In this document: one piece after another, positions 11,701 through 64,000 of the stretch | Numbering within the stretch: the stretch's first letter is position 1 | Layout: every line of letters begins with the position of its first letter | Assembly (NCBI RefSeq): GCF_003018235.1 | Contig: NZ_CP027437.1 | Origin: Escherichia coli | GTDB taxonomy: Bacteria; Pseudomonadota; Gammaproteobacteria; Enterobacterales; Enterobacteriaceae | Reading direction: 5' to 3' (one strand) | DNA: 64,000 bases | Made by a program: the position numbers and the translations under genes | The notes under the pieces: generated by a model | What the model saw: the letters and a program-made list of their open reading frames with translations, nothing else | What the model was told of the DNA's origin: nothing | Database searches by the model: none

Positions 11701-12590
11701 CCCAACGGTAAAACGTTGAGCACGGGTCCGGTAGCCGTCAGCGCCGCCGAGCCCAGTCGACGCATAAAGATAAATCCGGCAGCGTAGTCCATGCGGTTGC
11801 ACAATCGCCCCAGCCACAAAGCCGTCAGCGCAAGGGCTAAATCGGTACGCTGCACACCTGAAAGTTGCGTAGCCAGCTGGCGGAATTCCCCGTCGGTAAA
11901 TTCCAGTTTCAGGCGCAAAATATCTGCCGAAGCGCTGCGCCCCGGTAAAGGTGCCGGAGAAAGTGACGCGGGCGGTGGCAGTTGACGACGCTGTTCCGCC
12001 CAGAATGCCGCATCACGCTGCCAGGCTTCGCTTTCGCGGTATTGCTGGTACTCTTCCACTACATCAGCGAAAGGCGTAAACGGCGAAGCAGGCGTTGGTT
12101 CGCCACGCAGCAATGCGCAGTAAATATTGGCGATCTGGCGTGTAATGGCCGGGAAACTGAAGCCATCGACCAGCAAATGGTGATAACGCTGATACCAGTA
12201 CCAGCGGTTATCCGCCACCTGTATCAGTTGATGAAAGACCAGTGGTTTACCACTATCGACGCGCAGATCTTGTTGCAAATCCGCCTGCATTAATGCCCGC
12301 GCAGTACCGTGCGGATCAATGTTGGTTCGCAGGTCGATAATTTCTGGCAGTTCGAACGTCTGCGCATCATCGACCCACTGCCAGACTTCGCCGTTATCTT
12401 CCGTAAAACGCATCCGCAACGTATCTGCTTGCGCTAGTCCGGCAACCACCGCGCGGGCCAGTAATGGCGCATCAACCTCTCCGGTTAACTCAACGTAATG
12501 CGCCACGCTCCAGGCGGAGGGTAAATCCGACAGTTTTTCTGCCATCCAGATGCCGGGCTGTGCGGCGACCAAAGGTAAATGCTGGCTCAT
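8709..12590 (-). CDS. entF: enterobactin non-ribosomal peptide synthetase EntF
   Basis: 1293-aa ORF with adenylation-domain motifs (YIIFTSGSTGRPKGV) and a C-terminal thioesterase GYSLGG motif. Confidence 0.95.
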   Translation of the reverse strand: MSQHLPLVAAQPGIWMAEKLSDLPSAWSVAHYVELTGEVDAPLLARAVVAGLAQADTLRMRFTEDNGEVWQWVDDAQTFELPEIIDLRTNIDPHGTARALMQADLQQDLRVDSGKPLVFHQLIQVADNRWYWYQRYHHLLVDGFSFPAITRQIANIYCALLRGEPTPASPFTPFADVVEEYQQYRESEAWQRDAAFWAEQRRQLPPPASLSPAPLPGRSASADILRLKLEFTDGEFRQLATQLSGVQRTDLALALTALWLGRLCNRMDYAAGFIFMRRLGSAALTATGPVLNVLPLGIHIAAQETLPQLATRLAAQLKKMRRHQRYDAEQIVRDSGRAAGDEPLFGPVLNIKVFDYQLDIPGVQAQTHTLATGPVNDLELALFPDEHGDLSIEILANKQRYDEPTLIQHAERLKMLIAQFAADPALLCGDVDIMLPGEYAQLAQINATQVEIPETTLSALVAEQAAKTPHAPALADARYQFSYREMREQVVALANLLRERGVKPGDSVAVALPRSVFLTLALHAIVEAGAAWLPLDTGYPDDRLKMMLEDARPSLLITTDDQLPRFADVPDLTNLCYNAPLTPQGSAPLQLSQPHHTAYIIFTSGSTGRPKGVMVGQTAIVNRLLWMQNHYPLTGEDVVAQKTPCSFDVSVWEFFWPFIAGAKLVMAEPEAHRDPLAMQQFFAEYGVTTTHFVPSMLAAFVASLTPQTARQNCATLKQVFCSGEALPADLCREWQQLTSAPLHNLYGPTEAAVDVSWYPAFGEELAQVRGSSVPIGYPVWNTGLRILDAMMHPVPPGVAGDLYLTGIQLAQGYLGRPDLTASRFIADPFAPGERMYRTGDVARWLDNGAVEYLGRSDDQLKIRGQRIELGEIDRVMQALPDVEQAVTHACVINQAAATGGDARQLVGYLVSQSGLPLDTTALQAQLRETLPPHMVPVVLLQLPQLPLSANGKLDRKALPLPELKAQAPGRAPKAGSETIIAAAFSSLLGCDVQDADADFFALGGHSLLAMKLAAQLSRQFTRQVTPGQVMVASTVAKLATIIDGEEDSTQRMGFETILPLREGNGPTLFCFHPASGFAWQFSVLSRYLDPQWSIIGIQSPRPHGPMQTAANLDEVCEAHLATLLEQQPHGPYYLLGYSLGGTLAQGIAARLRARGEQVAFLGLLDTWPPETQNWQEKEANGLDPEVLAEINREREAFLAAQQGSTSTELFTTIEGNYADAVRLLTTAHSVPFDGKATLFVAERTLQEGMSPEQAWAPWIAELDIYRQDCAHVDIISPVAFEKIGPIIRATLNK

Positions 12591-12805
12591 TGTGCCTCCT
12601 GCAACTGGGTGAAATTCGCCGGTGTCAGAGTACGCCAGTGGGCTTCAAGCCACTGCTGGCAGGACGCCTGTGACTGCGGCTGACACACAACGTCCCAGCC
12701 TGCCGGTAAGGCGCATTGTTGCGGCCACAGACTGAATTGCCCCTGCGCATTGCGCAAAATGTAAAACACGCCCTGCGGATCATCGAAGGGATTACTGAAT
12801 GCCAT
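12587..12805 (-). CDS. ybdZ: MbtH-like protein YbdZ
   Basis: Small ORF overlapping the entF start; translation MAFSNPFDDPQG with conserved tryptophans; start taken at the second Met of the track ORF. Confidence 0.8.
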   Translation of the reverse strand: MAFSNPFDDPQGVFYILRNAQGQFSLWPQQCALPAGWDVVCQPQSQASCQQWLEAHWRTLTPANFTQLQEAQ

Positions 12806-12807
12806 AT

Positions 12808-14010
12808 TCAACTCCTGTCATGGAAAAGTGGTTGCCAGAGGTCGATTAGCCCCTGCATCAAGCCACCGCGCCAACAAAGCGCATCATGTCCGCCGTCAAC
12901 CTGACGCCAGAAAATGGATTCTTTTATGGGGTGTAATTGCGCATACAGCGCCTGATTGGCCCGCATGATCATCGGCTCGCGAATACCCGCTTCCAGCACA
13001 ATGCGCAGACCTTCGGCGCTAACTTCACCAGCTTTAAGTTGCTCAAGTAAAACACCTTCTTGCTGCCCGCCCCGATGCGGCCACCAGTACGATCCTGACT
13101 GGCTTAATACACAGCCAAAGCGTTCAGGCCAGTGCAGTCCGGCATACAGCGCGGAAAGCCCACCAAAACTCTGCCCGGCGACCACGGTGCGATCGGCGCG
13201 ATCGCTAAAAGGGGCAATAGCTTTCACCAGGGGTAATAACTCTTGCTGTACTGCCAGCCAGAAATCCGCATTACACGGCAGTTCGTGGGCGCGGTGCGTG
13301 GTGTCGATAGCGTCGATCAACACATACACGGCGGGAGGAAGTTGCCGACGATGGGTCAGCGAAGTCAGCACAGGCCAGACGGGCATACTTTGCGCCCAAA
13401 ATTCGCCATCGAGCAAAACTGCCAGCGGGCGTTCTTCTGCTGTTACATCGCCGGTGGTAAAAATCCATACACGACGTGAATTTTTCAGCCGTTCACTTTT
13501 CCAGATAATTTCTTTGACAGGTATTTCTGGCGCTTGCGGACAATCCCATCCCGGTTGCAGAGGCGCTTGCGGCATTTCGAGTGCAGAAACAGCGTGCCCT
13601 CGCCCGCCTTTCCAGCTTTGTGGATTCAGCGGATCGGCTATCGCCTGGGGTAATAGTTTTCGCCAGCCTTCGCGTAATTCGAGGCGATCAGGGGATGGTG
13701 CAGAAAAAATGTCATCGCGTTCGGTGGGAATAAAGCAGTAGCTGCCGCGCCAGTTGGCATTGAGTTGTGTCGTCCACTGCCAGACATCAGTACCTGCAAT
13801 TCGCTGCATCGACTGGGGCTGGCTGTTCTGATGGTGATCGGTCACACCAGTGATGTAGACCCATACCCGCTTTATCGTCGAGTATTCTTCAGAACCTTGG
13901 GGATCACGCCACCAGAAAGTGACCTCAAACATTTCGTCATTCAGACGCTGCCATTCCGGGCCATGTTTCGACTGCCACCAGCTCTCACTTCCTACTTTTA
14001 ACGCCGTCAC
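12808..14010 (-). CDS. fes: enterochelin esterase Fes
   Basis: 400-aa ORF with esterase GQSFGG motif, first gene of the fes-ybdZ-entF-fepE transcription unit. Confidence 0.9.
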   Translation of the reverse strand: MTALKVGSESWWQSKHGPEWQRLNDEMFEVTFWWRDPQGSEEYSTIKRVWVYITGVTDHHQNSQPQSMQRIAGTDVWQWTTQLNANWRGSYCFIPTERDDIFSAPSPDRLELREGWRKLLPQAIADPLNPQSWKGGRGHAVSALEMPQAPLQPGWDCPQAPEIPVKEIIWKSERLKNSRRVWIFTTGDVTAEERPLAVLLDGEFWAQSMPVWPVLTSLTHRRQLPPAVYVLIDAIDTTHRAHELPCNADFWLAVQQELLPLVKAIAPFSDRADRTVVAGQSFGGLSALYAGLHWPERFGCVLSQSGSYWWPHRGGQQEGVLLEQLKAGEVSAEGLRIVLEAGIREPMIMRANQALYAQLHPIKESIFWRQVDGGHDALCWRGGLMQGLIDLWQPLFHDRS

Positions 14011-16530: not shown

Positions 16531-16630
16531 ATGCCGGATGCGGCGTGAACGCCTTATCCGGCCTACAAAAATCTTGCCAATTCAATATATTGCAGGACCA
16601 CGTAGGCCTGATAAGCGTAGCGCATCAGGC
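16531..16630. repeat. pair of REP-like palindromic units between fepA and entD
   Basis: gccggatgcggcgtgaacgccttatccggcctac and gtaggcctgataagcgtagcgcatcaggc are classic enterobacterial REP sequences in opposite orientation. Confidence 0.5.
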
Positions 16631-17288: not shown

Positions 17289-17437
17289 TTGACAATACCC
17301 GGAGCGATTCGCCCGCAGCCAATGCTGACTGCGGGCGAAAGTGTAAAGCAGGTGCCTTACTACTCTGACCTGACAACCGGATATGCGGGGATTACTCCCA
17401 TAAGCGCTAACTTAAGGGATTACTCCCCGCACAACGG

Positions 17438-17590
17438 CTACTTCTTCGGTTCGTAAGCGAGAACAGCCTTAAACTCAATATTACGTTCCTTCACCGTAAA
17501 CTCACACAGCGAGTCGCGGACCAGAAGCGTAAATCCCAGCACCGTTAAACACAGCACTATGACTGCCACAAGGGCATATTTCGTCAGCAT
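17438..17590 (-). CDS. hokE: Hok-family membrane toxin, copy 1 (one substitution versus HokE: G25R)
   Basis: 50 codons [50 protein letters not shown]; overlapped out of frame by the mok-like ORF 17502..17735. Confidence 0.8.
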
Positions 17591-17735
17591 GTTTATATTG
17601 CCTCCATGCGAAGAAGGGACTACCATCCGAGTTGTTGAGGTTCGGAGTGGCAGCCCCAGGATTGATAGAAATATCTCCTGGGGCTTCATCTTTCCAGATC
17701 TCAGAGTTAACCTGAAACCGGAAAGCTTCAGGCAC
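17502..17735 (-). CDS. Mok-like overlapping reading frame of hok copy 1
   Basis: 77-aa ORF in a different frame covering most of hok, the arrangement known for hok/sok loci. Confidence 0.5.
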
Positions 17736-17940
17736 CCGCAGCTATCTTACCTTTCCTCAACAAAATAGCTGTTTATTTATACAGCAAATCCTGTTTCGGA
17801 CTTCTGTTGGCAAAACTGATCATTGCCCTTAAAACGACATCGCCCGCAGCCATTGCTGACCGCGGGCGAAAGTGTAAAACAGGTGCCTTACCACCCTGAC
17901 CTGACAACCGGATATGCGGGGATTGCTCCCCGCACAACGG

Positions 17941-18093
17941 CTACTTCTTCGGTTCGTAAGCGAGAACAGCCCTGAACTCAATATTACGTTCGTTCACCGT
18001 AAACTCACACAGCGAGTCTCCGACCAGAAGCGTAAATCCCAGCACCGTTAAACACAGCACTATGACTGCCACAAGGGCATATTTCGTCAGCAT
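17941..18093 (-). CDS. Hok-family toxin, copy 2 (K34N and K41R versus HokE)
   Basis: [50 protein letters not shown]; mok-like ORF 18005..18193 overlaps. Confidence 0.75.
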
Positions 18094-18193
18094 GTTTATA
18101 TTGCCTCCATGCGAAGAAGGGACTACCATCCAAATTGTTCAGGTTTGGGTAGGTAGCCCCAGGGTTGATAGAAATATCGTCCTGGGGCTTCAT
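18005..18193 (-). CDS. Mok-like overlapping frame of hok copy 2 (N-terminus differs from copy 1)
   Basis: 62-aa overlapping [16 protein letters not shown]... Confidence 0.4.
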
Positions 18194-18444
18194 CTTTCCA
18201 GACCTCAGAGTTAACCTGAAACCGGAAAGCTTCAGGCACCCGCTGTTATCTTACCCTTCCTCAGCAAAATAGCTGTTTATTTATACAGTGAATCCTGTTT
18301 CGGACTTCTGTTGGCAAAACTGATCATTGCCCTTAAAACGACATCGCCCGCAGCCATTGCTGACCGCGGGCGAAAGTGTAAAACAGGTGCCTTACCACCC
18401 TGACCTGACAACCGGATATGCGGGGATTACTCCCCGCACAACGG

Positions 18445-18597
18445 CTACTTCTTCGGTTCGTAAGCGAGAACAGCCTTAAACTCAATATTACGTTCCTTCA
18501 CCGTAAACTCACACAGCGAGTCTCCGACCAGAAGCGTAAATCCCAGTACCGTCAAACACAGCACTATGACTGCCACAAGGGCATATTTCGTCAGCAT
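18445..18597 (-). CDS. Hok-family toxin, copy 3 (identical to the HokE sequence I recall)
   Basis: [50 protein letters not shown]; here the hok frame stays open upstream to 18741 and begins with the Mok N-terminus (MPEAFRFQV...), i.e. the mok and hok frames are fused. Confidence 0.75.
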
Positions 18598-19028
18598 GTT
18601 TATATTGCCTCCATGCGAAGAAGGGACTACCATCCAAATTGTCTGGTTTGGAGTGGCAGCCCCAGGGTTGATAGAAATATCTCCTGGGGCTTCATCTTTC
18701 CAGACCTCAGAGTAAACCTGAAACCGGAAAGCTTCAGGCACCCGCCGTTATCTTACCCTTCCTCAGCAAAATAGCTGTTTATTTATACAGTGAGTCCTGT
18801 TTCGGACTTCTCACTCCTCATTTGATCAACTGAAGCTGAACCCGTTTTTTTCTGCATGCCTCAATCGTCAAAATTCTTCGCCACCAGCCAGCTCTGCCAT
18901 AACTTGTCACATTGCAAAAGTAGCCAAATTGCTTCAGTCACCATCACCAAAAAAAAGAAACATTCCAGAACTTCCGCATCTCGCCCAGCCGCTCCGACTT
19001 CTATACTGAATAGAAAACGCCAACATAA

Positions 19029-39739: not shown

Positions 39740-41810
<2,071 letters not shown>

Positions 41811-42153
41811 TCAAAGCGATATTCAGCATTACTGGAATCTGCGAATTGTCGCCAGTTCGCTATGTTTAAGCCCCAGCCTGCTCAAAAAGAAATTAAAAAA
41901 CGAAAATACCAGCTATAGCCAGATTGTCACAGAGTGTCGTATGCGTTACGCCGTACAGATATTATTGATGGATAACAAAAATATCACTCAGGTAGCGCAA
42001 TTATGTGGCTATAGCAGCACGTCGTACTTTATCTCTGTTTTTAAGGCGTTTTACGGCCTGACACCGTTGAATTATCTCGCCAAACAGCGACAAAAAGTGA
42101 TGTGGTGAAGGGCAAAGCGGAAACAGATAAGACGGGCATAAATGAAGAAGAAA

Positions 42154-42198
42154 TGGCGCGCCCTGCAGGATTCGAACCTGCGGCCCACGACTTAGAAG
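42154..42198 (-). other. 45-nt 3-prime fragment of tRNA-Arg (argU-like), probable prophage attachment-site remnant
   Basis: tggcgcgccctgcaggattcgaacctgcggcccacgacttagaag is the reverse complement of the 3-prime half of argU (acceptor stem, T-arm and anticodon stem) as I recall it; similarity stops abruptly at the anticodon. Confidence 0.6.
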
Positions 42199-42620
42199 TT
42201 CCTAGAACGACATTTTAAGTCAACAAATTACCGCGCCATCTCTGCGCTCACACGTCCCACTACCTCAAAACATGTAAAGCCTTGCAAGCCATTGTGAGGC
42301 CTTATGTGTCTCAGTTTTGTCCCTCTTTTTTGTACTAAAAAACATAGTAATTGAGGATAAACCTCATGCTATTTTCGCTTATATGCCTCTAAAGGCATGG
42401 CACTTAAATAGATAAAAGCACCACAAAAGCATAAAAAACCACACAGTAAAACCGCAATATGAAACAATAACAGATAATTAAACCAAAAACAGATAGCGCA
42501 TTGTGATAATCATTCAATACTAAACAAAATATAAACAGTGGAGCAATATGTAATTGACTCATTAAGTTAGATATAAAAAATACATATTCAATCATTAAAA
42601 CGATTGAATGGAGAACTTTT

Positions 42621-43574
42621 ATGCGGGCGAAACTTCTGGGAATAGTCCTGACAACCCCTATTGCGATCAGCTCTTTTGCTTCTACCGAGACTATATCGTT
42701 TACTCCTGACAACATAAATGCGGACATTAGTCTTGGAACTCTGAGCGGAAAAACAAAAGAGCGCGTTTATCTAGCTGAAGAAGGAGGCCGAAAAGTCAGT
42801 CAACTCGACTGGAAATTCAATAACGCTGCAATTATTAAAGGTGCAATTAATTGGGATTTGATGCCCCAGATATCTATTGGGGCTGCGGGCTGGACTACTC
42901 TCGGCAGCCGGGGTGGCAATATGGTCGATCAGGACTGGATGGATTCCAGTAACCCCGGAACCTGGACAGATGAAAGTAGGCACCCTGATACACAACTCAA
43001 TTATGCCAACGAATTTGATCTGAATATCAAAGGCTGGCTCCTCAACGAACCCAATTACCGCCTGGGACTCATGGCCGGATATCAGGAAAGCCGTTATAGC
43101 TTTACAGCCAGAGGTGGTTCCTATATCTACAGTTCTGAGGAGGGATTCAGAGATGATATCGGCTCCTTCCCGAATGGAGAAAGAGCAATCGGCTACAAAC
43201 AACGTTTTAAAATGCCCTACATTGGCTTGACTGGAAGTTATCGTTATGAAGATTTTGAACTCGGTGGCACATTTAAATACAGCGGCTGGGTGGAATCATC
43301 TGATAACGATGAACACTATGACCCGGGAAAAAGAATCACTTATCGCAGTAAGGTCAAAGACCAAAATTACTATTCTGTTGCAGTCAATGCAGGTTATTAC
43401 GTAACACCTAACGCAAAAGTTTATGTTGAAGGCGCATGGAATCGGGTTACGAATAAAAAAGGTAATACTTCACTTTATGATCACAATGATAACACTTCAG
43501 ACTACAGCAAAAATGGTGCAGGCATAGAAAACTATAACTTCATCACTACTGCTGGTCTTAAGTACACCTTTTAA
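42621..43574 (+). CDS. ompT: omptin outer membrane protease OmpT
   Basis: 317-aa ORF with a signal peptide and C-terminal F; recognised as OmpT. Confidence 0.9.
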   Translation: MRAKLLGIVLTTPIAISSFASTETISFTPDNINADISLGTLSGKTKERVYLAEEGGRKVSQLDWKFNNAAIIKGAINWDLMPQISIGAAGWTTLGSRGGNMVDQDWMDSSNPGTWTDESRHPDTQLNYANEFDLNIKGWLLNEPNYRLGLMAGYQESRYSFTARGGSYIYSSEEGFRDDIGSFPNGERAIGYKQRFKMPYIGLTGSYRYEDFELGGTFKYSGWVESSDNDEHYDPGKRITYRSKVKDQNYYSVAVNAGYYVTPNAKVYVEGAWNRVTNKKGNTSLYDHNDNTSDYSKNGAGIENYNFITTAGLKYTF

Positions 43575-43823
43575 GAACGCCAACTAAAATTTCCCCGAGG
43601 TGAAAATCGCCCCGGGGAATAACTAGCCATATCAATGTAACAATTAACCCTTAAAATAAACCCAGAAGGTTATTAACTGAATCACATAGAAAACCATCAA
43701 TTATAGTGTGTATAAAATGGGCGACAGCAACCCAATTACAAATTAATGGTTCCAGAATATCACATCAAAAAACACGCTATATAATATTATAATTAATATG
43801 TAGACAACTTGTAATAAACATTA

Positions 43824-44573
43824 TCAGTCAATTGTTTTGTTTATTCCATCTGTGACGCCGATTACTTTCTCAAAATAATGAGATGGCGTGACACCATAAT
43901 AATCTTTAAATGCACATATGAAATATGAAGTACTGTTATAGCCACATTTCTGGGCTACAACATTGATAGAATAAGAGTTTGAAGTTATGAGTTTTTTTGC
44001 ATACCTCATCCTAGTGTCTCTCAATACTTCAGTAAATGACGTTCCTTCATCCCTTAATCTTTTTTTTATTAAACTTTCACTCGTATAAATCAATTCCGCA
44101 ATATCTTTTAAATGCCATTGCCGCTCAATATTAAAACTGATTATTCCAGTAATTTTACAGGTAAATGTATTTATATTTGTTAGTATAAATGAATTTACAC
44201 TTTCGCGTTTTTTGAACATGGCAAGTAAGGATATACATAGTCGTTCTTTTAACCAAAGGGAGTGTGAGTCTGCTATTTTAATCCCTTCAAACAGAGAAAA
44301 AACAAGCGATAATGGAGGTTCCTCTTCAGCAATATAGTCATTCTTATCAAGAGTAAATTTGCCAGGCAGCTCATTATTCACGTCGATAAAAAAGGATAAA
44401 CATGTTTTCTTATCTATATCAACAATTCTTAGTTTAGAGGGGCATACTGGTAACTCCCTTCTAATTTTGTCGCTTACAATAAACAATGAATTTTTTTTGA
44501 ACGAGATAACTCTCCTGTTTATAATTAAATCAAATGATTGACAGATGAAAACTACGGAGCAAACATAATCCAT
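43824..44573 (-). CDS. appY: AraC-family transcriptional activator AppY
   Basis: 249-aa AT-rich ORF with a C-terminal AraC helix-turn-helix; recognised as AppY. Confidence 0.9.
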
Positions 44574-45237
44574 CTTGCACCTATCATAAAATTAAAACAA
44601 GTTGATAATAGTCAAATAACAACCAATTAAATACACAATCATAATCAGGATGATGTGCATTTATATTTTTATACACAAAATTATAGTTTGCAAATTTTAA
44701 TAAATTTCATTTAAGATTAAATTATTATATGTATATTATTTTTTATTCTAACGTATTTCAAAGTTACATTTTTCAACGCTTACTATGCTTTTTATTAACA
44801 TAAACTCACTACAACGCACCTGAAACCTCTTGCTATATATATGTCAACCGTTTGAATTTAAAATAAAAAGAGTATCATTTTTACTTGCATTTCTTATCAA
44901 GTCACATTCAACAACAGTAACAAAACATTATTAGAACCATTCAATTAACAAAAAACCAACATCCGGATTGCTTAACTTTTCTTTATTAAACGATATTGAA
45001 AATCAATTGATAAAATACATCTAAACAACTTTTTGGGGCGCAAAAGCATAACATCAAACCAACAAATAACACACCGAAAAAACTCACAATTAATAACCTA
45101 TGATATACATACTGTTTATTATGGTTGAATAAGCCACTCGATATCTGGCGTAACGGAAGTGTCTACACTGTTCAGCAGCACCCGATACTTCCATGCCTCT
45201 AGCAACAATCTTTCCTCCTCCGTTGTAATTTCCAGAT

Positions 45238-45378
45238 CTACAGCATGCTGAAGTGGCGCAATATGCTCACTCTCATTTTACCCTCAAAAATCCGGTCACA
45301 TTCTGCACAGTTCAACGCATTACGTTGTAGATCGGTGTTCTGGTCATTTGTTGATACACGTACATAGCCAATAAGCAT
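45238..45378 (-). pseudogene. remnant of a Gin/Pin/Cin-family serine DNA invertase (46 codons)
   Basis: Minus-strand [37 protein letters not shown]..., whose first 30 or so residues match the invertase N-terminus including the catalytic-Ser region; then it diverges and stops. Below the ORF-track size cutoff. Confidence 0.6.
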
Positions 45379-45440
45379 GTTAAATCCCCTTGGTAAAAGC
45401 AGGAATGATGCCATTTGCTTGTTATTTCTTCATTTTCATA

Positions 45441-45460
45441 AACGTTGGTTTGGGAGAAGG
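45441..45460. other. gix/cix-like recombination site (distal), inverted repeat of the site at 47279..47298
   Basis: aacgttggtttgggagaagg; its reverse complement matches gcttctcccaaaccaaggtt at 18 of 20 positions. Confidence 0.5.
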
Positions 45461-45926
45461 CTCTGCATTACCTGTTGGTGTGCCTGTTCCATGGCCTTCA
45501 GCCACACCGCCAACAGGCTGGCTGAAATGCAACGGTGCGGCATTTTCTGCTGAAGAATACCCGGAACTGGCAAAGGCTTATCCAACAAATAAATTACCTG
45601 ATTTACGCGGTGAGTTTATTCGTGGCTGGGATGACGGGCGCGGTATTGATGCAGGACGTGTTTTATTGAGTATTCAGGCCGGAATGCTGGAAAAGCACCG
45701 TCATCCTGTTGTCGCCAACGATGAGTATGACTCAAAAGAGGAATGGGAACTAGCGACAATCTTCAGAAGAGCATATAAGCAAGGCAGGGGGCTTGATGCT
45801 GCCGCTGCCGGAGGGAGTCTGATCCCATCACCGACACTTCATTCACGAGGGAGTATCGGTAATACTGGCGGGAGTGAAACCCGTCCACGAAATATTGCAT
45901 TTAACTATATCGTGAGGGCTGCATAA
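45441..45926 (+). CDS. alternative tail-fibre C-terminal segment in the currently unexpressed orientation
   Basis: C-terminal part of track ORF 45390..45926 with tail-fibre motifs (LPDLRGEFIRGWDDGRGID, NIAFNYIVRAA); there is no plausible start of its own, and the region upstream of the crossover site is not fibre-like. Confidence 0.55.
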   Translation, partial: NVGLGEGSALPVGVPVPWPSATPPTGWLKCNGAAFSAEEYPELAKAYPTNKLPDLRGEFIRGWDDGRGIDAGRVLLSIQAGMLEKHRHPVVANDEYDSKEEWELATIFRRAYKQGRGLDAAAAGGSLIPSPTLHSRGSIGNTGGSETRPRNIAFNYIVRAA

Positions 45927-46528
45927 TGGATAACGCCGTATTAAATAGCGAGCTTATTACCACGAAGGCGGGGAATATTACCGTCTATAACTATGATGGT
46001 GAGACGCGGGAATATATTTCTGCATCAACTGAATATCTTGCAGTGGGTGTCGGTATTCCAGCATATTCCTGTTTAGACGCTCCTGGTACATCTAAGGCTG
46101 GTTATACAATTTGCCGTTCTGTGGATTTAAAATCATGGGAATATGTGTCAGACCATCGCGGTGAAATCGTCTATAACACCGAAACGGGAGATGCCAAAGA
46201 AATCACAGCACTAGGCGACTATCCCGAAAATACAACCACTATCGCCCCGTTAACGCCATACGATAAATGGGATGGTGAAAAATGGGTGACAGATACTGAG
46301 GCACAACACGGTGCCGCAGTAGAAGCGGCAGAAGCACAGCGCCAGTCACTGATTGATGCAGCAATGGCTTCCATCAGTCTGATTCAACTGAAATTGCAGG
46401 CCGGACGTAAACCGACGCAGGCAGAAACAACCAGACTTAACGCTGTGCTGGATTACATTGACGCGGTGACGGCAACAGATACCAGCACCGCGCCGGATGT
46501 CATCTGGCCTGAACTGCCGGAGGCGTAG
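45926..46528 (+). CDS. tail fibre assembly chaperone (Tfa), partner of the alternative fibre segment
   Basis: 200-aa ORF whose start overlaps the preceding stop; conserved Tfa C-terminus. Confidence 0.7.
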   Translation: MDNAVLNSELITTKAGNITVYNYDGETREYISASTEYLAVGVGIPAYSCLDAPGTSKAGYTICRSVDLKSWEYVSDHRGEIVYNTETGDAKEITALGDYPENTTTIAPLTPYDKWDGEKWVTDTEAQHGAAVEAAEAQRQSLIDAAMASISLIQLKLQAGRKPTQAETTRLNAVLDYIDAVTATDTSTAPDVIWPELPEA

Positions 46529-46943
46529 GCCATTCAATATCTGGCGCACTGGAGGTATCAACCAGCTCCAGTGCATCCAGATAATCCAGCCACAAATTAT
46601 ATTGCGCCAGTTCCTCACCTTTCAGACGACCAATAGCGGCTTTACCGGGCCATTGTTTACTGTTCATGTATTCGTTGGCCTGGTTAATCAATAATTGCCT
46701 CTCTGATTCGGCCTGTTCAATAAGTTCCTCATGTGATGGTGGAGGTATTTCAGCCCATGTGGGAAAACCATTTTCCCCTGCAACTCGGATTTTCCCTTGT
46801 GGCGGTTCCGCCATATATTTTACAGAAATATCATCAGGAATATCTAATGCATTAGCAGGCCATGTTCCATTTACTTCATAAGTGTTTTTTAAATTAACAG
46901 CATAAAAAGCATTTTCCGAAGGGGAATAAATATATTGATTCAT
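46500..46943 (-). CDS. tail fibre assembly chaperone (Tfa), expressed orientation
   Basis: 147-aa ORF convergent with the other tfa and overlapping it by 29 bp; conserved C-terminus SSAPDIEWPTPP. Confidence 0.7.
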   Translation of the reverse strand: MNQYIYSPSENAFYAVNLKNTYEVNGTWPANALDIPDDISVKYMAEPPQGKIRVAGENGFPTWAEIPPPSHEELIEQAESERQLLINQANEYMNSKQWPGKAAIGRLKGEELAQYNLWLDYLDALELVDTSSAPDIEWPTPPAVQAR

Positions 46944-46944
46944 A

Positions 46945-47583
46945 TTATCTTCCTATTGCGATAATCATAGTTCCATACAAACCATTTCCGGTTGATACTT
47001 TTAAGGTTACTGATGTCCTTGTTGTCGTGTACCCCATAAGTTTAAAGGTCGGAGCAGCCGTTAATGTGCCATCTGACCATAAGGCACTAACAGCCAGTGC
47101 GCCTGAAGGAAATGCAATAGGGAAATTACCTGTAGTTCCGTTAGTGTCCGCCCCATAAACATTCATCGAAAACATTTGGACAATATGACCACTTGGTAAC
47201 TGAAACCAGTTTTTGCCAGATGGAAATGCAGACATATCTGGTATCTGATTTTCCCCTGTTCCCACATTCCGTTTTGCCGCTTCTCCCAAACCAAGGTTTT
47301 CGAGAGCCGTTTTCACCGTGCCGTCCGATTTGATATCGCCAAACGGATTTTTGCGGCTTAACAGCAGCGCACGAAGCGCGGTAAGCAGCTGGTCATGCCG
47401 CCCCTTCTCCAGGCTGGCACCGGATGCCTCCACCACGCTGCAGAGTTCTTCCTGCAACATGTCAAAGTAGTCATCATCCAGATCGGTGGCAGGTGTGCCG
47501 GTCTGGGGGTTACCACGGGTAAAACCGTTCTTACCCGCGCCGAACTTATCCTTCTGCGCGGTTTTCGTGTCTATACGATGCAT
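46945..47583 (-). CDS. tail fibre protein (constant N-terminus plus variable C-terminus)
   Basis: 212-aa ORF; the crossover site lies inside the gene near codon 95. Confidence 0.7.
47279..47298. other. gix/cix-like recombination site (proximal, inside the tail fibre gene)
   Basis: gcttctcccaaaccaaggtt, inverted relative to 45441..45460. Confidence 0.5.
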
Positions 47584-47586
47584 GGA

Positions 47587-58047: not shown

Positions 58048-58432
58048 TGCTGCCTCCGTGACTCTGCCTACATTCGCCCAGCTCCGTACACTCCAGCAGC
58101 AGAAAGCGCCGCGCCCCGTTCAGATCGCGCTGACGTTTCACCCGGTACACACTGTCACCGCAGACCACCTCATAATCAGCGGTGATCCCCCGGCGGTAAC
58201 GAATGGTGATGTAATGGGTGATGGCGTCCCCTGTCTGCGCGGTTTCCTGCCAGGTGGTGGCACTGGTCTGGATAACCTTCGCCCATGTCCGGAACGTAAC
58301 CGGGTATTGAGGCTCCACGCCAAAGTTATCCGCGGGCATATCCACCCGCAGGCGGATCAGGACGCGTTTATTCAGTTCACCGGGGTCCGGCAGAATGTAG
58401 GTTGCGCTGGTCTGCGCCTGACGAATTTTCAT
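58022..58432 (-). CDS. head closure / head-tail adaptor protein
   Basis: 136-aa ORF between connector and tail-completion genes. Confidence 0.5.
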   Translation of the reverse strand: MKIRQAQTSATYILPDPGELNKRVLIRLRVDMPADNFGVEPQYPVTFRTWAKVIQTSATTWQETAQTGDAITHYITIRYRRGITADYEVVCGDSVYRVKRQRDLNGARRFLLLECTELGECRQSHGGSNGDSLFSR

Positions 58433-58752
58433 TGCGGAAAGTACCTGTACGGGCCGACAAGCCAGCCAAAACTCTGCGGCATGTCGAGTTTCTCCACTTC
58501 CGTAACCGACGAGCGGTTTTCGTAAAAATGGCTGATAAGCATCAGCATCCCCAGACGAATATCATCCGGCAGGTGCAGCCCGTCCGGATCGCTCTCCGGA
58601 ATGGTTTCATCCGGTGCATAGAGCTTCCGGTTCAGATACGTTTCCGTCCGCTTTTGCGCCGCACAGGCCAGCAGTTGCAGATGGCGGTCATCAGCATCGA
58701 AATCCTCATCCAGCCGGAGTTGGGCTTTAATCTCTTCCATTGTCAGAAGCAT
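58429..58752 (-). CDS. head-tail connector protein (gp6-like)
   Basis: 107-aa ORF immediately downstream of the capsid module. Confidence 0.5.
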   Translation of the reverse strand: MLLTMEEIKAQLRLDEDFDADDRHLQLLACAAQKRTETYLNRKLYAPDETIPESDPDGLHLPDDIRLGMLMLISHFYENRSSVTEVEKLDMPQSFGWLVGPYRYFPQ

Positions 58753-58754
58753 AC

Positions 58755-58955
58755 TCAGCCCTCTTTACTGGTCGTGGCTTTTTTCTCTTTTGCCGCTTTA
58801 CTGCTTTTTGCACTGGTTCCGCGCTCTGCTAACCCGGCCTGAAGTGCAATCTCCTGCACCCGGGCAGGAAGCGCCCCATCGTCATACTCACCGGCCCGAA
58901 TGACCTCAACACGCATACCGTCCGGTGACCATTTCAGATCTTGTTTCAGGATCAT
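58755..58955 (-). CDS. hypothetical small phage protein
   Basis: 66-aa ORF with a Lys/Ala-rich tail, between capsid and connector; function unknown. Confidence 0.35.
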   Translation of the reverse strand: MILKQDLKWSPDGMRVEVIRAGEYDDGALPARVQEIALQAGLAERGTSAKSSKAAKEKKATTSKEG

Positions 58956-59004
58956 GATTCTTCACCCGTCAGAACAGGGGGCGCGGTTCCGCGCCCCTGA
59001 GTGA

Positions 59005-60210
59005 TTACGCCGCTGCAATCTTCAGCAGTTTGATGGCCTGCGAATCGACCAGCATCCCGCCGGTGCGCTTGGTGGTATAAAAACCGACAAACGGTTTATT
59101 GGTGTACGGGTCACGCAGAATGCGGGTGCCGATACGGTCAACGATGGTGTAACCCCGTTTGAAGTTACCAAATGCAATGGCTTTCGCATCAGCGGCGATA
59201 TCCGGCATCTGTTCGTTTTCAGCGATACCGTAACCCGCCAGAGAGGACGGCTGCCCCAGTTCCAGCCCCGGACGCCACAGATAGTTACCCTCGCTGTCTT
59301 TAAGCAGACGGATGGCAAACAGGCTGTTGTTGTTCATCATGAACTTCGCGCCAGTGCGGTGTGCCTTACGCAGCGTGTAAATCAGTTTGATAATGGCGTC
59401 TGCGGTCACCGCGGTCGCTTCGCCGGATACAATATGCTGAAGTTTGCCGAACGCCCGGACCTTGTCGGTTTCATCAGTGGATTCATACGCCAGGAACCCT
59501 TTCGGCTTCTTGGTGCCATCGCCTGAGGTAAAGGCAATTTCTTCCTGTTCGGCAAATTCGGTTGCCAGCTCGCTGTTGATCCAGGCCTCCACGTTGAAGA
59601 AGGCATCGTCCAGCATTTTCTGGGTAGCCTGCGGGTTGCCGTAGATTTCCCCCATGAGAGGTTCAATCAGCTCCAGTCTGGAGGTGGCAGTCTGGGATCG
59701 CGTATCCGTTTCCCCCACCCATCCGGAAGCCGTACCGCCCAGATTCACCAGTTTTTTGTAGTCGGAACCGCCAACGGTGATCACCGTGGCTTCCTGACGC
59801 ATCACCACTTCATCTTTCAGCAGGTTAAGAATGTTGCGATCCAGTTCTTCCGGCACGGCGTAGCCACCGTCTTCATCGGTACCCACCTGCAATGCCTTAC
59901 GCTCCAGATCGCGCAGACCGTCTTCACGGCCTTTACGTAGAAAGCCCACAAACGCCTCTTTATGCTCGGTGGCCAGTTTATTTTGCGCTCCACCTGCCGG
60001 ACGTTTCAGCTCAAGCAGCTCTTTTTCAAGGTCGCTTTTGAGATTTTCCAGCTCGCTGAGTTTCCCGTTCAGGGTTTCCACCTGCCCGGCAAGCTTGCCT
60101 TTTTCCTGCTCAATCGCATCCACGCGCTTGTCGTTCTTTGCTTTGAAGTCGTCAAACTTCTGCTGCAGCTCCTGCGCGACCTGTTCGACATCTTTAATAT
60201 CAACCGCCAT
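59005..60210 (-). CDS. major capsid protein, HK97 family
   Basis: 401-aa ORF with an N-terminal coiled-coil delta domain followed by an HK97-like fold region. Confidence 0.85.
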   Translation of the reverse strand: MAVDIKDVEQVAQELQQKFDDFKAKNDKRVDAIEQEKGKLAGQVETLNGKLSELENLKSDLEKELLELKRPAGGAQNKLATEHKEAFVGFLRKGREDGLRDLERKALQVGTDEDGGYAVPEELDRNILNLLKDEVVMRQEATVITVGGSDYKKLVNLGGTASGWVGETDTRSQTATSRLELIEPLMGEIYGNPQATQKMLDDAFFNVEAWINSELATEFAEQEEIAFTSGDGTKKPKGFLAYESTDETDKVRAFGKLQHIVSGEATAVTADAIIKLIYTLRKAHRTGAKFMMNNNSLFAIRLLKDSEGNYLWRPGLELGQPSSLAGYGIAENEQMPDIAADAKAIAFGNFKRGYTIVDRIGTRILRDPYTNKPFVGFYTTKRTGGMLVDSQAIKLLKIAAA

Positions 60211-60224
60211 CGTATTTCTCCTGA

Positions 60225-60911
60225 TTAGAAGTTCAGATTTTTCAGTGCATTCAGTGCAGAGCCCACATCCTCAGCGTCGCGCAGGGACAGTGCGCCATAG
60301 CCCCCGGCCATGAATGCTTTGGCCTGGGTACGGGAGAGTCCGACATCACGCAGGACTCTTTCGATTTTTTTCTGTTCGGGGATTTCCCCGCGGGCCAGCG
60401 CGTTCTTGACGTCGCTGATCCGCGCCTCGTCGTTAGACGGAAACGTCACCAGACTGACTTCCCAGAGGTCGATTTCTTTCAACAGAAAGGCTTCTTTGCT
60501 CCGGTCGTATTCCCAGTCTTTCAGGACGTACCCAATAGAAAGGCCGGTTAACGAACCGGCCTTCATGTGTGCATGTGCGCGTTTTGCGAGGGGATCATCA
60601 TCAATAAGCAACCGTCCCCTGACGTAAAGCCCGACATCGTCTTCCTTCATTTCGGTGTAAACACCGATGGGTTCATCCATGCGGTGCTGCCAGAGCAGCG
60701 CAGGTAACGCTTTTCTGTCACTCCACGCCCGCAGGGAAGCAGCAAATGCCCCGGACATCACCACATCATCGTGGCTGTCCTTTACACCAAAGACGGAGCC
60801 ATACCCTTCAAACTCACCGGAGTCACTGACAGATTTCAGACTCAGCGGTACATCAAGACGTTGTTTCGTCTGCATTGGCGTTATCCTTCTGCTTACCGGC
60901 TTTACTGCCAT
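60225..60911 (-). CDS. prohead maturation protease, HK97 family
   Basis: 228-aa ORF between portal and capsid; the true start may lie at an internal Met, since the track ORF overlaps the portal end by 59 nt. Confidence 0.75.
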   Translation of the reverse strand: MAVKPVSRRITPMQTKQRLDVPLSLKSVSDSGEFEGYGSVFGVKDSHDDVVMSGAFAASLRAWSDRKALPALLWQHRMDEPIGVYTEMKEDDVGLYVRGRLLIDDDPLAKRAHAHMKAGSLTGLSIGYVLKDWEYDRSKEAFLLKEIDLWEVSLVTFPSNDEARISDVKNALARGEIPEQKKIERVLRDVGLSRTQAKAFMAGGYGALSLRDAEDVGSALNALKNLNF

Positions 60912-62094
60912 CGGAGGGTTTCGTGGTCATGTTCATCGGTGTGAGATAGACATCCCCACCGGGACGCGGATTCATATCTTCCAGGTCGCGGCAGTCATTG
61001 GGAGAGTAAATTCCCCAGTTAATCCCGGTGGCGTAGGCTTCAAAACGGGACTTCATATCCCCGCGCAGTAACGCCCCGGCGTTAAATTTGGCGTAATAAA
61101 CGCCCTGCTTACTTTTTCGTACCAGTCCGGTGTTGATCCGCTGCTCAATGCGGGTCAGATACGGCACCAGTGAATAGTTGATAAATCCCAGCCCCAGCTC
61201 TTCGATATTGTTGAAGGTGGCGCGATCGGTGTTCTGCACCATGTGCAATGGCACACGGAACAGACGACAGATTTCTTCAAGCTGAAACTTGCGGGTTTCC
61301 AGGAACTGGCTGTCCTCGGCGTTCAGCGCCATCGACTTCCAGTCCAGCCCCATCTCAAGGATCATCGGGCGGTGAGCATTACCAAGCCCGGTGTGACGCT
61401 CCTCAAAATCTTTCTTCAGACGCTCATAAGCCTGATCCGACAGCGTCTGCTCTGTACGCAACACACCGGACGTCACCGCACCATTGCTGAACAGTCTGGC
61501 CCCGTGCTCTTCGGTCGCAGCTGCCAGCGATATTGCCTCGCGGGCATAGGCGATGGGATTCAGTCCCACCAGACCGTCCAGCGTCAGCGTGCGCACATGC
61601 CAGATATCTTCCTGGCTCAGTACATCCGTGGAGCCGTCCGGGAATGTGACCTGGTAAACCGGTTCCCAGCTACTGTTAAGCTTCGGTACCACACAACCTG
61701 GGTCGACGGGCAGCAGTTCAGCCACTTCGCCAAATGCTTTCACTTTGTAGGCGTAAAAGTTTCCCCGCAGGCACAGACAGGTGATCACCAGCTCCCAGAA
61801 CTCCTGCGGCGTCATATAGCCATTGGGATGCGTGGAGATCAGCTTATGCAGACGTTCGCCGGTGGCTCTCTGTTTCAGGCTGCCGTTCAGGTGATACAGG
61901 TTGCAGGGCAACATCCCGACCGACTCCGCCAGCACCCTGACGCAGGAAAAAACCGCCGTCAGTCGCATGGCCCGCTGGCTGCTGATCTGCTTTCCGGTAT
62001 AGGTGTCATATGACAGCCCGATAGCATCCGCCAGCTCTGCTGGCGTGGTCACCGGTGCGTCACTTTTTCGTTGAAATAATCCCGAAAAGAACAC
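60853..62094 (-). CDS. portal protein, HK97 family
   Basis: 413-aa ORF upstream of the protease/capsid genes. Confidence 0.85.
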   Translation of the reverse strand: MFFSGLFQRKSDAPVTTPAELADAIGLSYDTYTGKQISSQRAMRLTAVFSCVRVLAESVGMLPCNLYHLNGSLKQRATGERLHKLISTHPNGYMTPQEFWELVITCLCLRGNFYAYKVKAFGEVAELLPVDPGCVVPKLNSSWEPVYQVTFPDGSTDVLSQEDIWHVRTLTLDGLVGLNPIAYAREAISLAAATEEHGARLFSNGAVTSGVLRTEQTLSDQAYERLKKDFEERHTGLGNAHRPMILEMGLDWKSMALNAEDSQFLETRKFQLEEICRLFRVPLHMVQNTDRATFNNIEELGLGFINYSLVPYLTRIEQRINTGLVRKSKQGVYYAKFNAGALLRGDMKSRFEAYATGINWGIYSPNDCRDLEDMNPRPGGDVYLTPMNMTTKPSDGSKAGKQKDNANADETTS

Positions 62095-62276
62095 TATTTA
62101 CCTCCGCCGACAGACGGCTGTGTACGGTCGAGATATCGCGCCACCAGCCACGACCAGAACAGGCACAGCGCCCCGGCAACAACAAACCCCGCCGGGGGAT
62201 AAATCAGCCAGGCACCATACGCCAGCAAAAGCGCACCCAGCACGCCCACCAGAGGCGCGAGAATCAGCATGATCAT
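62094..62276 (-). CDS. small two-span membrane protein of unknown function
   Basis: 60-aa hydrophobic ORF wedged between terminase and portal, start/stop-coupled to the portal gene. Confidence 0.4.
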
Positions 62277-62287
62277 AATTACCTCAG

Positions 62288-63949
62288 TTAAAGCGAGCGG
62301 ATCCCGTAGGACTCAATGTGATCAGACAGCGTGTCTTCTTTCTCGTACAGCATGGCTCTGCCAACCGCCATAATCAGCGCAACTGCACCATCAATTTTGT
62401 TTTCCGCCTGCTCCTTGACGGGCTTCACCACATCATCGTTACCCGGAATGGTTTTGCCGACCACGTTGCCGATACACCAGGTCATGATGGGATTGCCGTC
62501 ATGATGAAAACGCCCCGATTCAATTGCCGCTTCCAGCTCTTTCAGCGGGTCGGACATGTTGGTGTAGTTCTGAATGATGGTGATGGGGTTCAGGTCTTCA
62601 TCCGCAAGGTCATGCGACAGCCCGGTCGCCCCGAAGGGGTCGATGGGTGACTCACTGACCGGGCTGATTTTGTTCGCCGCTTTGGCCTCCTCGAGGATGT
62701 AGCGATAATCCACCTCCGCACCATCGGTAACGGTCAGAACGCCCATTTCCACCCATTTCTGAAAGCGCTCGGCTGTCCGGCGATCTTCATTTTTCTCGAC
62801 GCTGTACACCGTGTCATACGGTACCCAGAAGCGCGGAGCCACACTGTAGTAATGCGTTTTACCGTCAATCTCGCGGGTATAAAGTCGCGCCATACTGTTC
62901 ATATCCAGCTTACGCGCCAGGTCAAAGGCCAGAATGCACGGCTGCCCCTCAAACTGCTCAAGGGTCAGTGATTTATCCTCGCAGCTCTGCCAGCTCACCA
63001 GGTTGAAATACGCCGAACGCGCCGACACCCAGATATTGAGGTGTTTTGTTTTAAAGACGTTTGCCAGACGGGCGTTATTTTTCGCACGCTGCTGCTGACT
63101 TAACAAAAATTCGCGATAAACCGACACGCCAATATTTGGATTGGCTTTTTCCAGCACCTGCGGGTCGGTCCAGTCGTCACCTTCATCAACGGTATAGATG
63201 ATCCCGAACAGTTCATCGTTGGGCACCGAGCCGTTGAGCATCTCGATGACTTCCCGCCGCTTGTCGTAGCACGGCCCCTCAATGTTGTACCCGGCAGTAG
63301 TAATGGCCCACATCAGTGGCTGACGTCGCGCCCCCATCCCGGTAAGCATCGTGGTGTAAAGCGCATCGGTGGCGTGCTCGTGATATTCATCCACCACCGC
63401 ACAGTGGGGTGATGATCCATCACCGGGGTTACCGATCAGCGGTTCAAAACGCGCACCATCCTCCGGACGGTTCATGTTTGAGGCGTTAACCTCAATCCCG
63501 AACGCTTCCGTCAGCATGGGTGTGCGTTTACACATCAGTCGCGCCGGGCGAAAGACTTCCCACGCCTGTTTCTCTGTCGTGGCACCGGAATACACTTCCG
63601 CGCCAAACTCGTTATCACAGGCAAAACAATACAGGGCGACACCGGCAGAGATTGCCGATTTGCCGTTCTTACGGGGGATTTCGGTATACACCTCACGGAA
63701 GCGGCGCAGCCGGGAGCCTTTATTGACCCAGCCAAACGCGCAGCAGATCACAAAGAGCTGCCACGGCTCCAGCGTGATGGGCATCCTCTTGAATGCCCAC
63801 TCACCCTTGGTGTGCGGCAACAGCTGAATAAATTTGGCGGCCCGTTCAGCCAGGTCCTTGTCGAAGCGGTAACGAAACGACTTACTTTTTTCCGCCATCA
63901 GGTCATCAAGATGGCGCTGGCAGGCCTGAATCACAAACTGGCAGGCCAC
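62288..63949 (-). CDS. terminase large subunit
   Basis: 553-aa ORF at the head of the structural module. Confidence 0.85.
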
Positions 63950-64000
63950 AATCTTTCCGCGAACGACATCCCGGGCATACTGATTGGCAGCATTTACGTT

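Follow-up and report, generated by a model that had tools for sequence, protein, structure and literature searches.

A 45-nt argU fragment beside envY as the very probable attR core of a 42-kb mosaic prophage at the DLP12 site of Escherichia coli

Phages whose tyrosine integrases target tRNA genes carry in attP a copy of the 3' end of the tRNA, and the gene is rebuilt at the int end of the integrated element. In the tRNA integrations of P4, P22 and CP4-57, the 3' segment of the gene is duplicated, the tRNA is rebuilt proximal to int, a half-tRNA scar lies distally and empty sites are found. In Escherichia coli K-12, the prophage DLP12 (21,302 bp) is integrated in a tRNA gene, which it reconstitutes, and excises in fewer than 1 per 100,000 cells (PMC3105296). 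The far end of DLP12 is marked by a 47-bp argU-like attR, and prophages at the DLP12 site are present in 74% of 638 genomes (PMC6379469, which lists Lindsey et al. 1989, on the DLP12 integrase and argU, among its references). In the annotation of the K-12 reference, cryptic DLP12 begins at nt 33 of argU and stops one base short of a 45-nt copy of the end of that gene, located between ompT and envY, with a period of 21,302 bp. A scar of this kind, and the mechanism that leaves it, are already known, having been described for K-12 DLP12.

The window, by which we mean the whole 64,000-nt stretch of E. coli DNA that was analysed, matches K-12 collinearly between entE and envY, with 96.6–98% identity and in the reverse of the K-12 map orientation. 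To the right of an IS100 copy that lies within envY, similarity to K-12 is confined to 41729–45271, and a module of phage structural genes extends from there to the right end of the window. The features of this region are as follows.

39776–41729, plus strand: IS100 (IS21 family; istA, 340 aa; istB, 260 aa), 1,954 bp with its ORFs, inside envY and outside the prophage.
41730–42108, plus strand: 3' part of envY, the chromosomal gene abutting the attachment site, from K-12 homology; its stop codon is 45 nt from the fragment.
42154–42198, minus strand: 45-nt 3' part of argU (positions 33–77), very probably the attR core and displaced original tRNA 3' end; exact match to argU and direct repeat in the argU of a sibling.
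42199–42620, no strand assigned: prophage-side flank of attR and upstream region of ompT, AT-rich and without a long ORF; 98% identical to the DLP12 right end and missing in empty-site genomes.
42621–43574, plus strand: ompT, for a 317-aa omptin (outer-membrane protease), the element's final gene (ORF and K-12 annotation; 43.7% GC).
43824–44573, minus strand: appY, AraC-type regulator, 249 aa, cargo (ORF and K-12 annotation; 32% GC).
45119–45271, minus strand: tfaX remnant (C-terminal part; tail-fibre assembly), the inner end of the arm shared with DLP12; K-12 homology ends at 45271.
45277–45378, minus strand: pin', a serine invertase gene of the Pin/Gin type reduced to its first 34 codons and fused to tfaX, from translation against full-length PinE.
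45440–47299, no strand assigned: invertible tail-fibre segment of 1.86 kb, with assembly genes as well as alternative fibre tips, flanked by 20-nt inverted crossover repeats.
46945–64000, minus strand: structural module (tail fibre, baseplate, tape measure, tube, sheath, connectors, HK97-type capsid, protease, portal, large terminase), from ORFs and from the annotation and Pfam matches of DNA 98–99% identical to it.

Read on the minus strand, 42154–42198 is CTTCTAAGTCGTGGGCCGCAGGTTCGAATCCTGCAGGGCGCGCCA, and all 45 of its 45 nt are identical to positions 33–77 of K-12 argU, from the anticodon loop to the CCA. The TT that follows the CCA agrees with the bases 3' of argU, so that the identity grows to 47 nt. 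The 5' half of argU is absent, and the DNA upstream of the fragment (…gtcgttctaggaa) is unrelated to the gene. When both strands of the 64-kb window were searched for argU matches of at least a 14-mer, the copy at 42154–42198 was the only one found. An exact match over 45 nt, in a search space of 64 kb, excludes a chance origin.

Across all 64 kb ARAGORN called 0 tRNA genes, and at the gathering score Rfam matched no tRNA in the whole window, its matches being three sok RNAs and ES036 only. A permissive Rfam scan of 42000–42400 gave one sub-threshold tRNA match (19.7 bits against a gathering score of 29), which covers the T-arm only; the complete cloverleaf of a functional tRNA was not recognized in the fragment by the tRNA finders. 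The preliminary description had reported, between envY and ompT, an exact-looking 45-nt minus-strand copy of the 3' half of argU with no 5' half, and had expected no intact tRNA here. It was accurate in each respect: the alignment to K-12 argU is perfect, the tRNA searches are empty, and the fragment has the 3' end of envY (42108) on its left and ompT on its right. A search for promoters and terminators near the fragment returned matches at the consensus level only, with none on the fragment itself, and a role for it as a terminator or promoter element was dropped on these grounds. Since it has neither a 5' half nor a promoter-like site, the fragment is not a gene.

On the chromosomal side, IS100 splits envY and is flanked by a 5-bp CTTTC target duplication. 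Sibling L075, which has only 3 mismatches against the window in 17.5 kb, is without IS100 and has an intact envY; the insertion is therefore recent. Two sibling draft contigs, ABUMTU010000001.1 and that of L076, start exactly at the IS100 edge. Further to the left, a hok/sok (hokE-type) unit is present at 17411–18811 in three tandem copies of approximately 504 bp that are 82–97% identical, each matched by Rfam sok over its full length; in K-12 the unit is single, and IS186 comes after it. The period of this array, at more than 500 nt, escapes Tandem Repeats Finder, and the array was resolved by a direct repeat search. An Rfam match to the ES036 (CssrF) sRNA at 16568–16609 (42.2 bits against a gathering score of 37.6) lies between entD and the array, which is about 1 kb away to its right.

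The large terminase gene runs off the right end of the window, and the far end of the element, with argU and intD, was read in sibling assemblies. These were found by exact-protein look-up. The contig of the clone itself was recovered by rare alleles (a 157-aa ORF, ybcK, exo and baseplate J), and was not recovered by the common ones (portal, a 260-aa protein, cI, ren, a 353-aa protein and OmpT). This contig, ABUMTU010000001.1 (GCA_041857655.1), has 1 mismatch against the window in 13,148 bp, and its first base corresponds to window position 41732, at the IS100 edge, where the L076 contig also begins. The near-identity and the shared break at IS100 indicate that the contig is essentially from the same clone as the window. 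In L075 and L076, too, the fragment, ompT, appY and the tail genes are contiguous, at 99.97–99.99% identity to the window.

Beyond the window, the sibling DNA continues with the small terminase, HNH, lysis and Q genes, then ylcG, rusA, ybcO, ninE, ybcN, ybcK, ylcJ and emrE. These are followed by ren, P, O, ydaT, cro, cI, two cargo genes, kil, gam, bet, exo, small ORFs and intD. An intact tRNA-Arg(TCT) gene, identical to K-12 argU, lies at 13338–13414 of L064, and fimZ, sfmF/H/D/C/A and folD come after it. The intD orthologue, encoding a tyrosine integrase, occupies 12158–13321 of L064, inside the element, and its 3' end is 15 nt from the 3' end of argU. When the window and the sibling contig are stitched together, all overlaps agree, and the 45-nt core is present in exactly two copies, perfect direct repeats with no third. 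The span between the repeats, counting both copies, is 41,983 bp (49.2% GC), and the genes between them make up a full lambdoid complement that begins with int and extends to the tail fibres. We infer that the genome from which the window derives has the same far end. The expectation that a full argU and an integrase lie beyond the window at the other prophage end is thus borne out in ABUMTU010000001.1.

The first 343 residues of the sibling IntD are those of K-12 IntD save for one substitution. A frameshift near nt 1032 of the L064 intD then replaces …IEMVRRYAHL…, and the product stops at 347 aa. The 347-aa call is also made in the independent Logan read-level assembly L067, and intD is intact, at 387 aa, in L065, L066 and L052. 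The region lost to the frameshift presumably holds the catalytic tyrosine, and for this reason excision is probably disabled, and the prophage locked in, in the sibling lineage with the frameshifted intD. In related DLP12-type prophages, the slot between P/ren and ybcN holds other cargo in place of emrE and ybcK: KwaA/KwaB (Kiwa defence), a SIR2-domain protein, HEPN proteins, a BstA-like protein and a 1,302-aa invasin-like protein. The loci concerned are L039 4884–6467, L043 1908–3491, L058 4515–6488, L037 6409–7205, L055 13120–14049 and L059 2458–6366.

The unoccupied form of the site was sought with a 600-nt query in which K-12 fimZ–argU was joined directly to the envY-side flank of the window. 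Of 5,426 complete E. coli genomes, 2,532 (47%) have this empty site, with argU and the envY flank contiguous, in alignments of one piece that reach up to 100% coverage at 99.3–99.5% identity. The annotation of one such strain, N3, reads fimZ, tRNA-Arg, envY (45 nt downstream), ybcH and nfrA. Since argU abuts the envY flank in so many genomes, everything between the repeats is inserted DNA, ompT and appY included. The junctions are of the corresponding form. At the integrase end, attL consists of the 5' part of argU, the core and ttacaattcaatcag…; towards envY, attR consists of …gtcgttctaggaa, the core and tttcttcttcatttatgcc…; and the empty site consists of argU followed directly by tttcttc…. 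All three sequences fit a crossover within the stretch of identity.

The direct repeat, the integrase beside the intact tRNA gene inside the element and the unoccupied site in relatives together identify an att pair, and the fragment is very probably the attR core of a lambdoid prophage integrated in the 3' end of argU, at the DLP12 site. What is observed is the repeat, an argU gene intact beside an integrase at the distal end, the contiguity of the DNA and the empty site; the course of integration for this particular element is proposed from the established behaviour of tRNA-targeting tyrosine integrases. The phage attP would have contained the final 45 nt of argU in duplicate, and an IntD-mediated crossover within the 45-nt identity would have restored the full gene next to the integrase (attL). 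What had been the 3' part of argU would then have been left as a promoterless half-tRNA (attR) some 42 kb away, beside its old neighbour envY. In the stitched sequence the gene order is argU, followed by intD, exo-bet-gam, cI-cro, O-P-ren, emrE, ybcK, ninE-rusA, Q and lysis genes. It continues with the P27-type terminase, HK97-type head, Mu/SfV-type contractile tail, invertible tail fibre and pin', and then with tfaX', appY and ompT, the 45-nt copy and envY. The fragment has no tRNA function, and its only plausible activity is as a substrate for excision. Compared with the tRNA integrations of P4, P22 and CP4-57, there is no difference of substance, and the locus is a textbook case.

The element resembles DLP12 in its site (fimZ–argU … envY), in having the same 45-nt core (47 nt with the TT) at both ends, and in the position of IntD beside argU. 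The right arm of tfaX, appY and ompT is shared at 98% identity, and so is the order of the early genes emrE, ylcJ, ybcK, ybcN, ninE, ybcO, rusA and ylcG. In contrast, DLP12 of K-12 is a 21.3-kb remnant that retains lambda-type Nu1/terminase fragments and has no morphogenesis genes. The 41,983-bp element described here has a full recombination, immunity and replication region, a different Q and lysis cassette, a complete P27-type terminase, an HK97-type head and a contractile tail, as well as a truncated pin fused to a shorter tfaX. The gene content of DLP12 (nmpC, the essD-rrrD-rzpD lysis genes, nohD and tfaD) was not found in the 42-kb element. The most fitting description of the element is that of a larger, mosaic relative which occupies the DLP12 site.

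Between 41729 and 45271, a stretch that takes in the 3' part of envY, then the fragment, ompT and appY, and lastly what remains of tfaX, identity to the DLP12 right end in K-12 is 98.1%. In siblings, the tfaX remnant is called as a 47-aa Caudo_TAP fragment. GC content is 35% in the arm (42199–45271), compared with 52% in the neighbouring chromosome and 55% in the structural genes. The OmpT allele of the window is found in many genomes, and in every context shown its gene is the last before envY. The inner neighbours of ompT vary, and include a methyltransferase, an alpha/beta hydrolase and a KGG/DUF892/Mn-catalase cluster, followed by lambda-type tail genes (L069–L074). The low GC content and the variable inner partners of ompT are consistent with cargo status. 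That ompT and appY are cargo at the prophage end, as had been proposed, is upheld by their position inside the repeats and by their absence from empty-site genomes; they are non-phage cargo in the last 3 kb before attR. In L069–L074, appY is often missing beside ompT, so the attR-proximal cargo arm is itself variable. The spacer between appY and tfaX (44574–45118; 545 bp, 25% GC) contains no ORF and is conserved with K-12.

At the inner end of the arm, a deletion junction lies at about 45272–45280, and tfaX begins 105 nt further in than the remnant in K-12. Because pin is cut at 34 codons and joined to the interior of tfaX, one endpoint of the deletion is in pin and the other in tfaX. The junction is common to siblings L008 (99.1% identical), L075, L076 and L077 (99.97–99.99% for the last two). 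It is absent, as an appY/tail-fibre junction, from all 5,426 complete E. coli genomes, and a 50-mer across it was not found in the viral or species-representative collections.

Immediately beyond pin', the repeats that bound the invertible tail-fibre segment lie at 45440–45459 and 47280–47299 and read AAACGTTGGTTTGGGAGAAG and CTTCTCCCAAACCAAGGTTT, respectively. In the near-identical sibling L076 the segment (11922–13781) is reversed, and L076 also has the truncated pin. As both carry the truncation, the inversion presumably took place after the loss of pin, through an invertase encoded elsewhere.

The module at 47228–64000 is 98–99% identical, in the same order, to prophages in other E. coli of the SfV, e14 and phiP27 type, a type of both E. 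coli and Shigella, with which it shares the HK97-like head, the Mu-like contractile tail and the invertible fibre segment beside pin. Those prophages have other integrases and sites (thrW, beside paoD, intS/gtr, icd), and in them pin is intact and leads on to right-end cargo of their own, whereas here the module lies inside an argU/IntD prophage and pin is reduced to 34 codons. Among the best matches in complete genomes, near-identical structural modules are placed near paoD (a7), at thrW (ECE313) and at the intS/gtr site (O17_K12a). The early region and cI allele of the clone recur at icd (there beside a 380-aa integrase), at sbcB and at other sites, and modules are also found at argW-type sites. 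Similarity of modules, being misleading here, was rejected as evidence for the integration site. Because the same modules sit at other sites elsewhere, it is by contiguity only that the structural genes are tied to argU.

Other explanations of the fragment and its surroundings were weighed against this evidence. Automatic annotations give a tRNA-like pseudogene only, or nothing, at the fragment, and this would agree with a decayed second tRNA-Arg gene, or with a local partial duplication of argU, that has no link to a phage. However, the identity starts at the annotated K-12 prophage boundary and runs for 45 nt without decay, the partner copy, at a distance of 42 kb, is part of an intact argU that adjoins an integrase gene, and empty-site genomes have one copy and nothing between; this explanation is effectively refuted, and we give it next to no credence. 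It is also very unlikely that the structural genes come from a prophage at another site (thrW, icd or similar) and were moved beside ompT by a rearrangement, so that the fragment would bound only an islet of ompT and appY. The near-identical modules at thrW, near paoD and at intS/gtr in other strains, and the illegitimate nature of the junction with the arm, would be expected in that case. Against this, the sibling contig runs unbroken from the structural genes through lysis, Q, replication, immunity and recombination genes to intD, argU and fimZ, in normal prophage orientation and with identical overlaps, and the contiguity is seen in three independent assemblies.

A further explanation concerns the history of the arm, and we rate it just short of an even chance. 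Here the arm would be all that is left of the right end of an older prophage in argU, the ancestor of DLP12, and the 39-kb body a later lambdoid phage that either came into the same site in tandem or recombined with the remnant. The deletion between pin and tfaX would have removed the intervening DNA, including any middle att copy, and ompT and appY would be cargo of the predecessor. Such a history would account for the 34 pin codons joined to the interior of tfaX, and for an arm 98% conserved with K-12 beside a body wholly unlike DLP12 of K-12. It also agrees with the persistence of ompT beside envY while inner neighbours and bodies vary by strain, and with the form of the module elsewhere, where it ends in an intact pin and more genes before its own attR. 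However, no middle att copy or second integrase survives, recombination among lambdoid prophages gives the same result without a second integration, and the empty-site data fit one event or two alike.

The fragment as the attR core of a prophage in argU, the reading preferred above, is common ground to either history of the body, and with it the original proposal that the partial tRNA copy is the att scar of a tRNA-targeting integrase is substantiated by the two-copy direct repeat, the intact argU with its integrase, and the empty site. The accompanying proposal, that ompT, appY and the structural genes all belong to one argU-integrated prophage, holds in so far as there is one pair of repeats and no third copy, but needs amendment, as the element is composite and not a pristine single phage. 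It is a mosaic in which the tfaX-appY-ompT arm is joined to the structural module through the pin-truncating deletion. This junction, the conservation of the arm with K-12 beside a wholly different body, the variable partners of ompT and the intact pin of the module elsewhere suggest that the arm is older than the present body, which could have arrived by tandem integration and deletion or by recombination among lambdoid prophages.

We put forward, tentatively and as somewhat less than an even proposition, a broader view of the site. The scar may anchor a cargo arm next to attR, consisting of ompT and in some cases appY, that has long stayed in place while whole prophage bodies swap behind it, the pin'-tfaX junction being a fossil of one such exchange; and the tail-fibre switch beside the dead pin may still flip in near-identical siblings, driven in trans by an invertase encoded elsewhere.

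Beyond annotation the result matters little. It establishes where, in this strain, the prophage in argU ends on the right. Mildly new are the 42-kb mosaic body, the pin'-tfaX junction, the frameshift in the sibling intD and the flipped fibre segment beside a dead pin. The virulence-associated ompT and the regulator gene appY lie in a mobile element that is missing from about half of complete E. coli genomes, and the DLP12 site is able to accommodate a mosaic phage of 42 kb that is nearly complete, in place of the 21-kb remnant of K-12.
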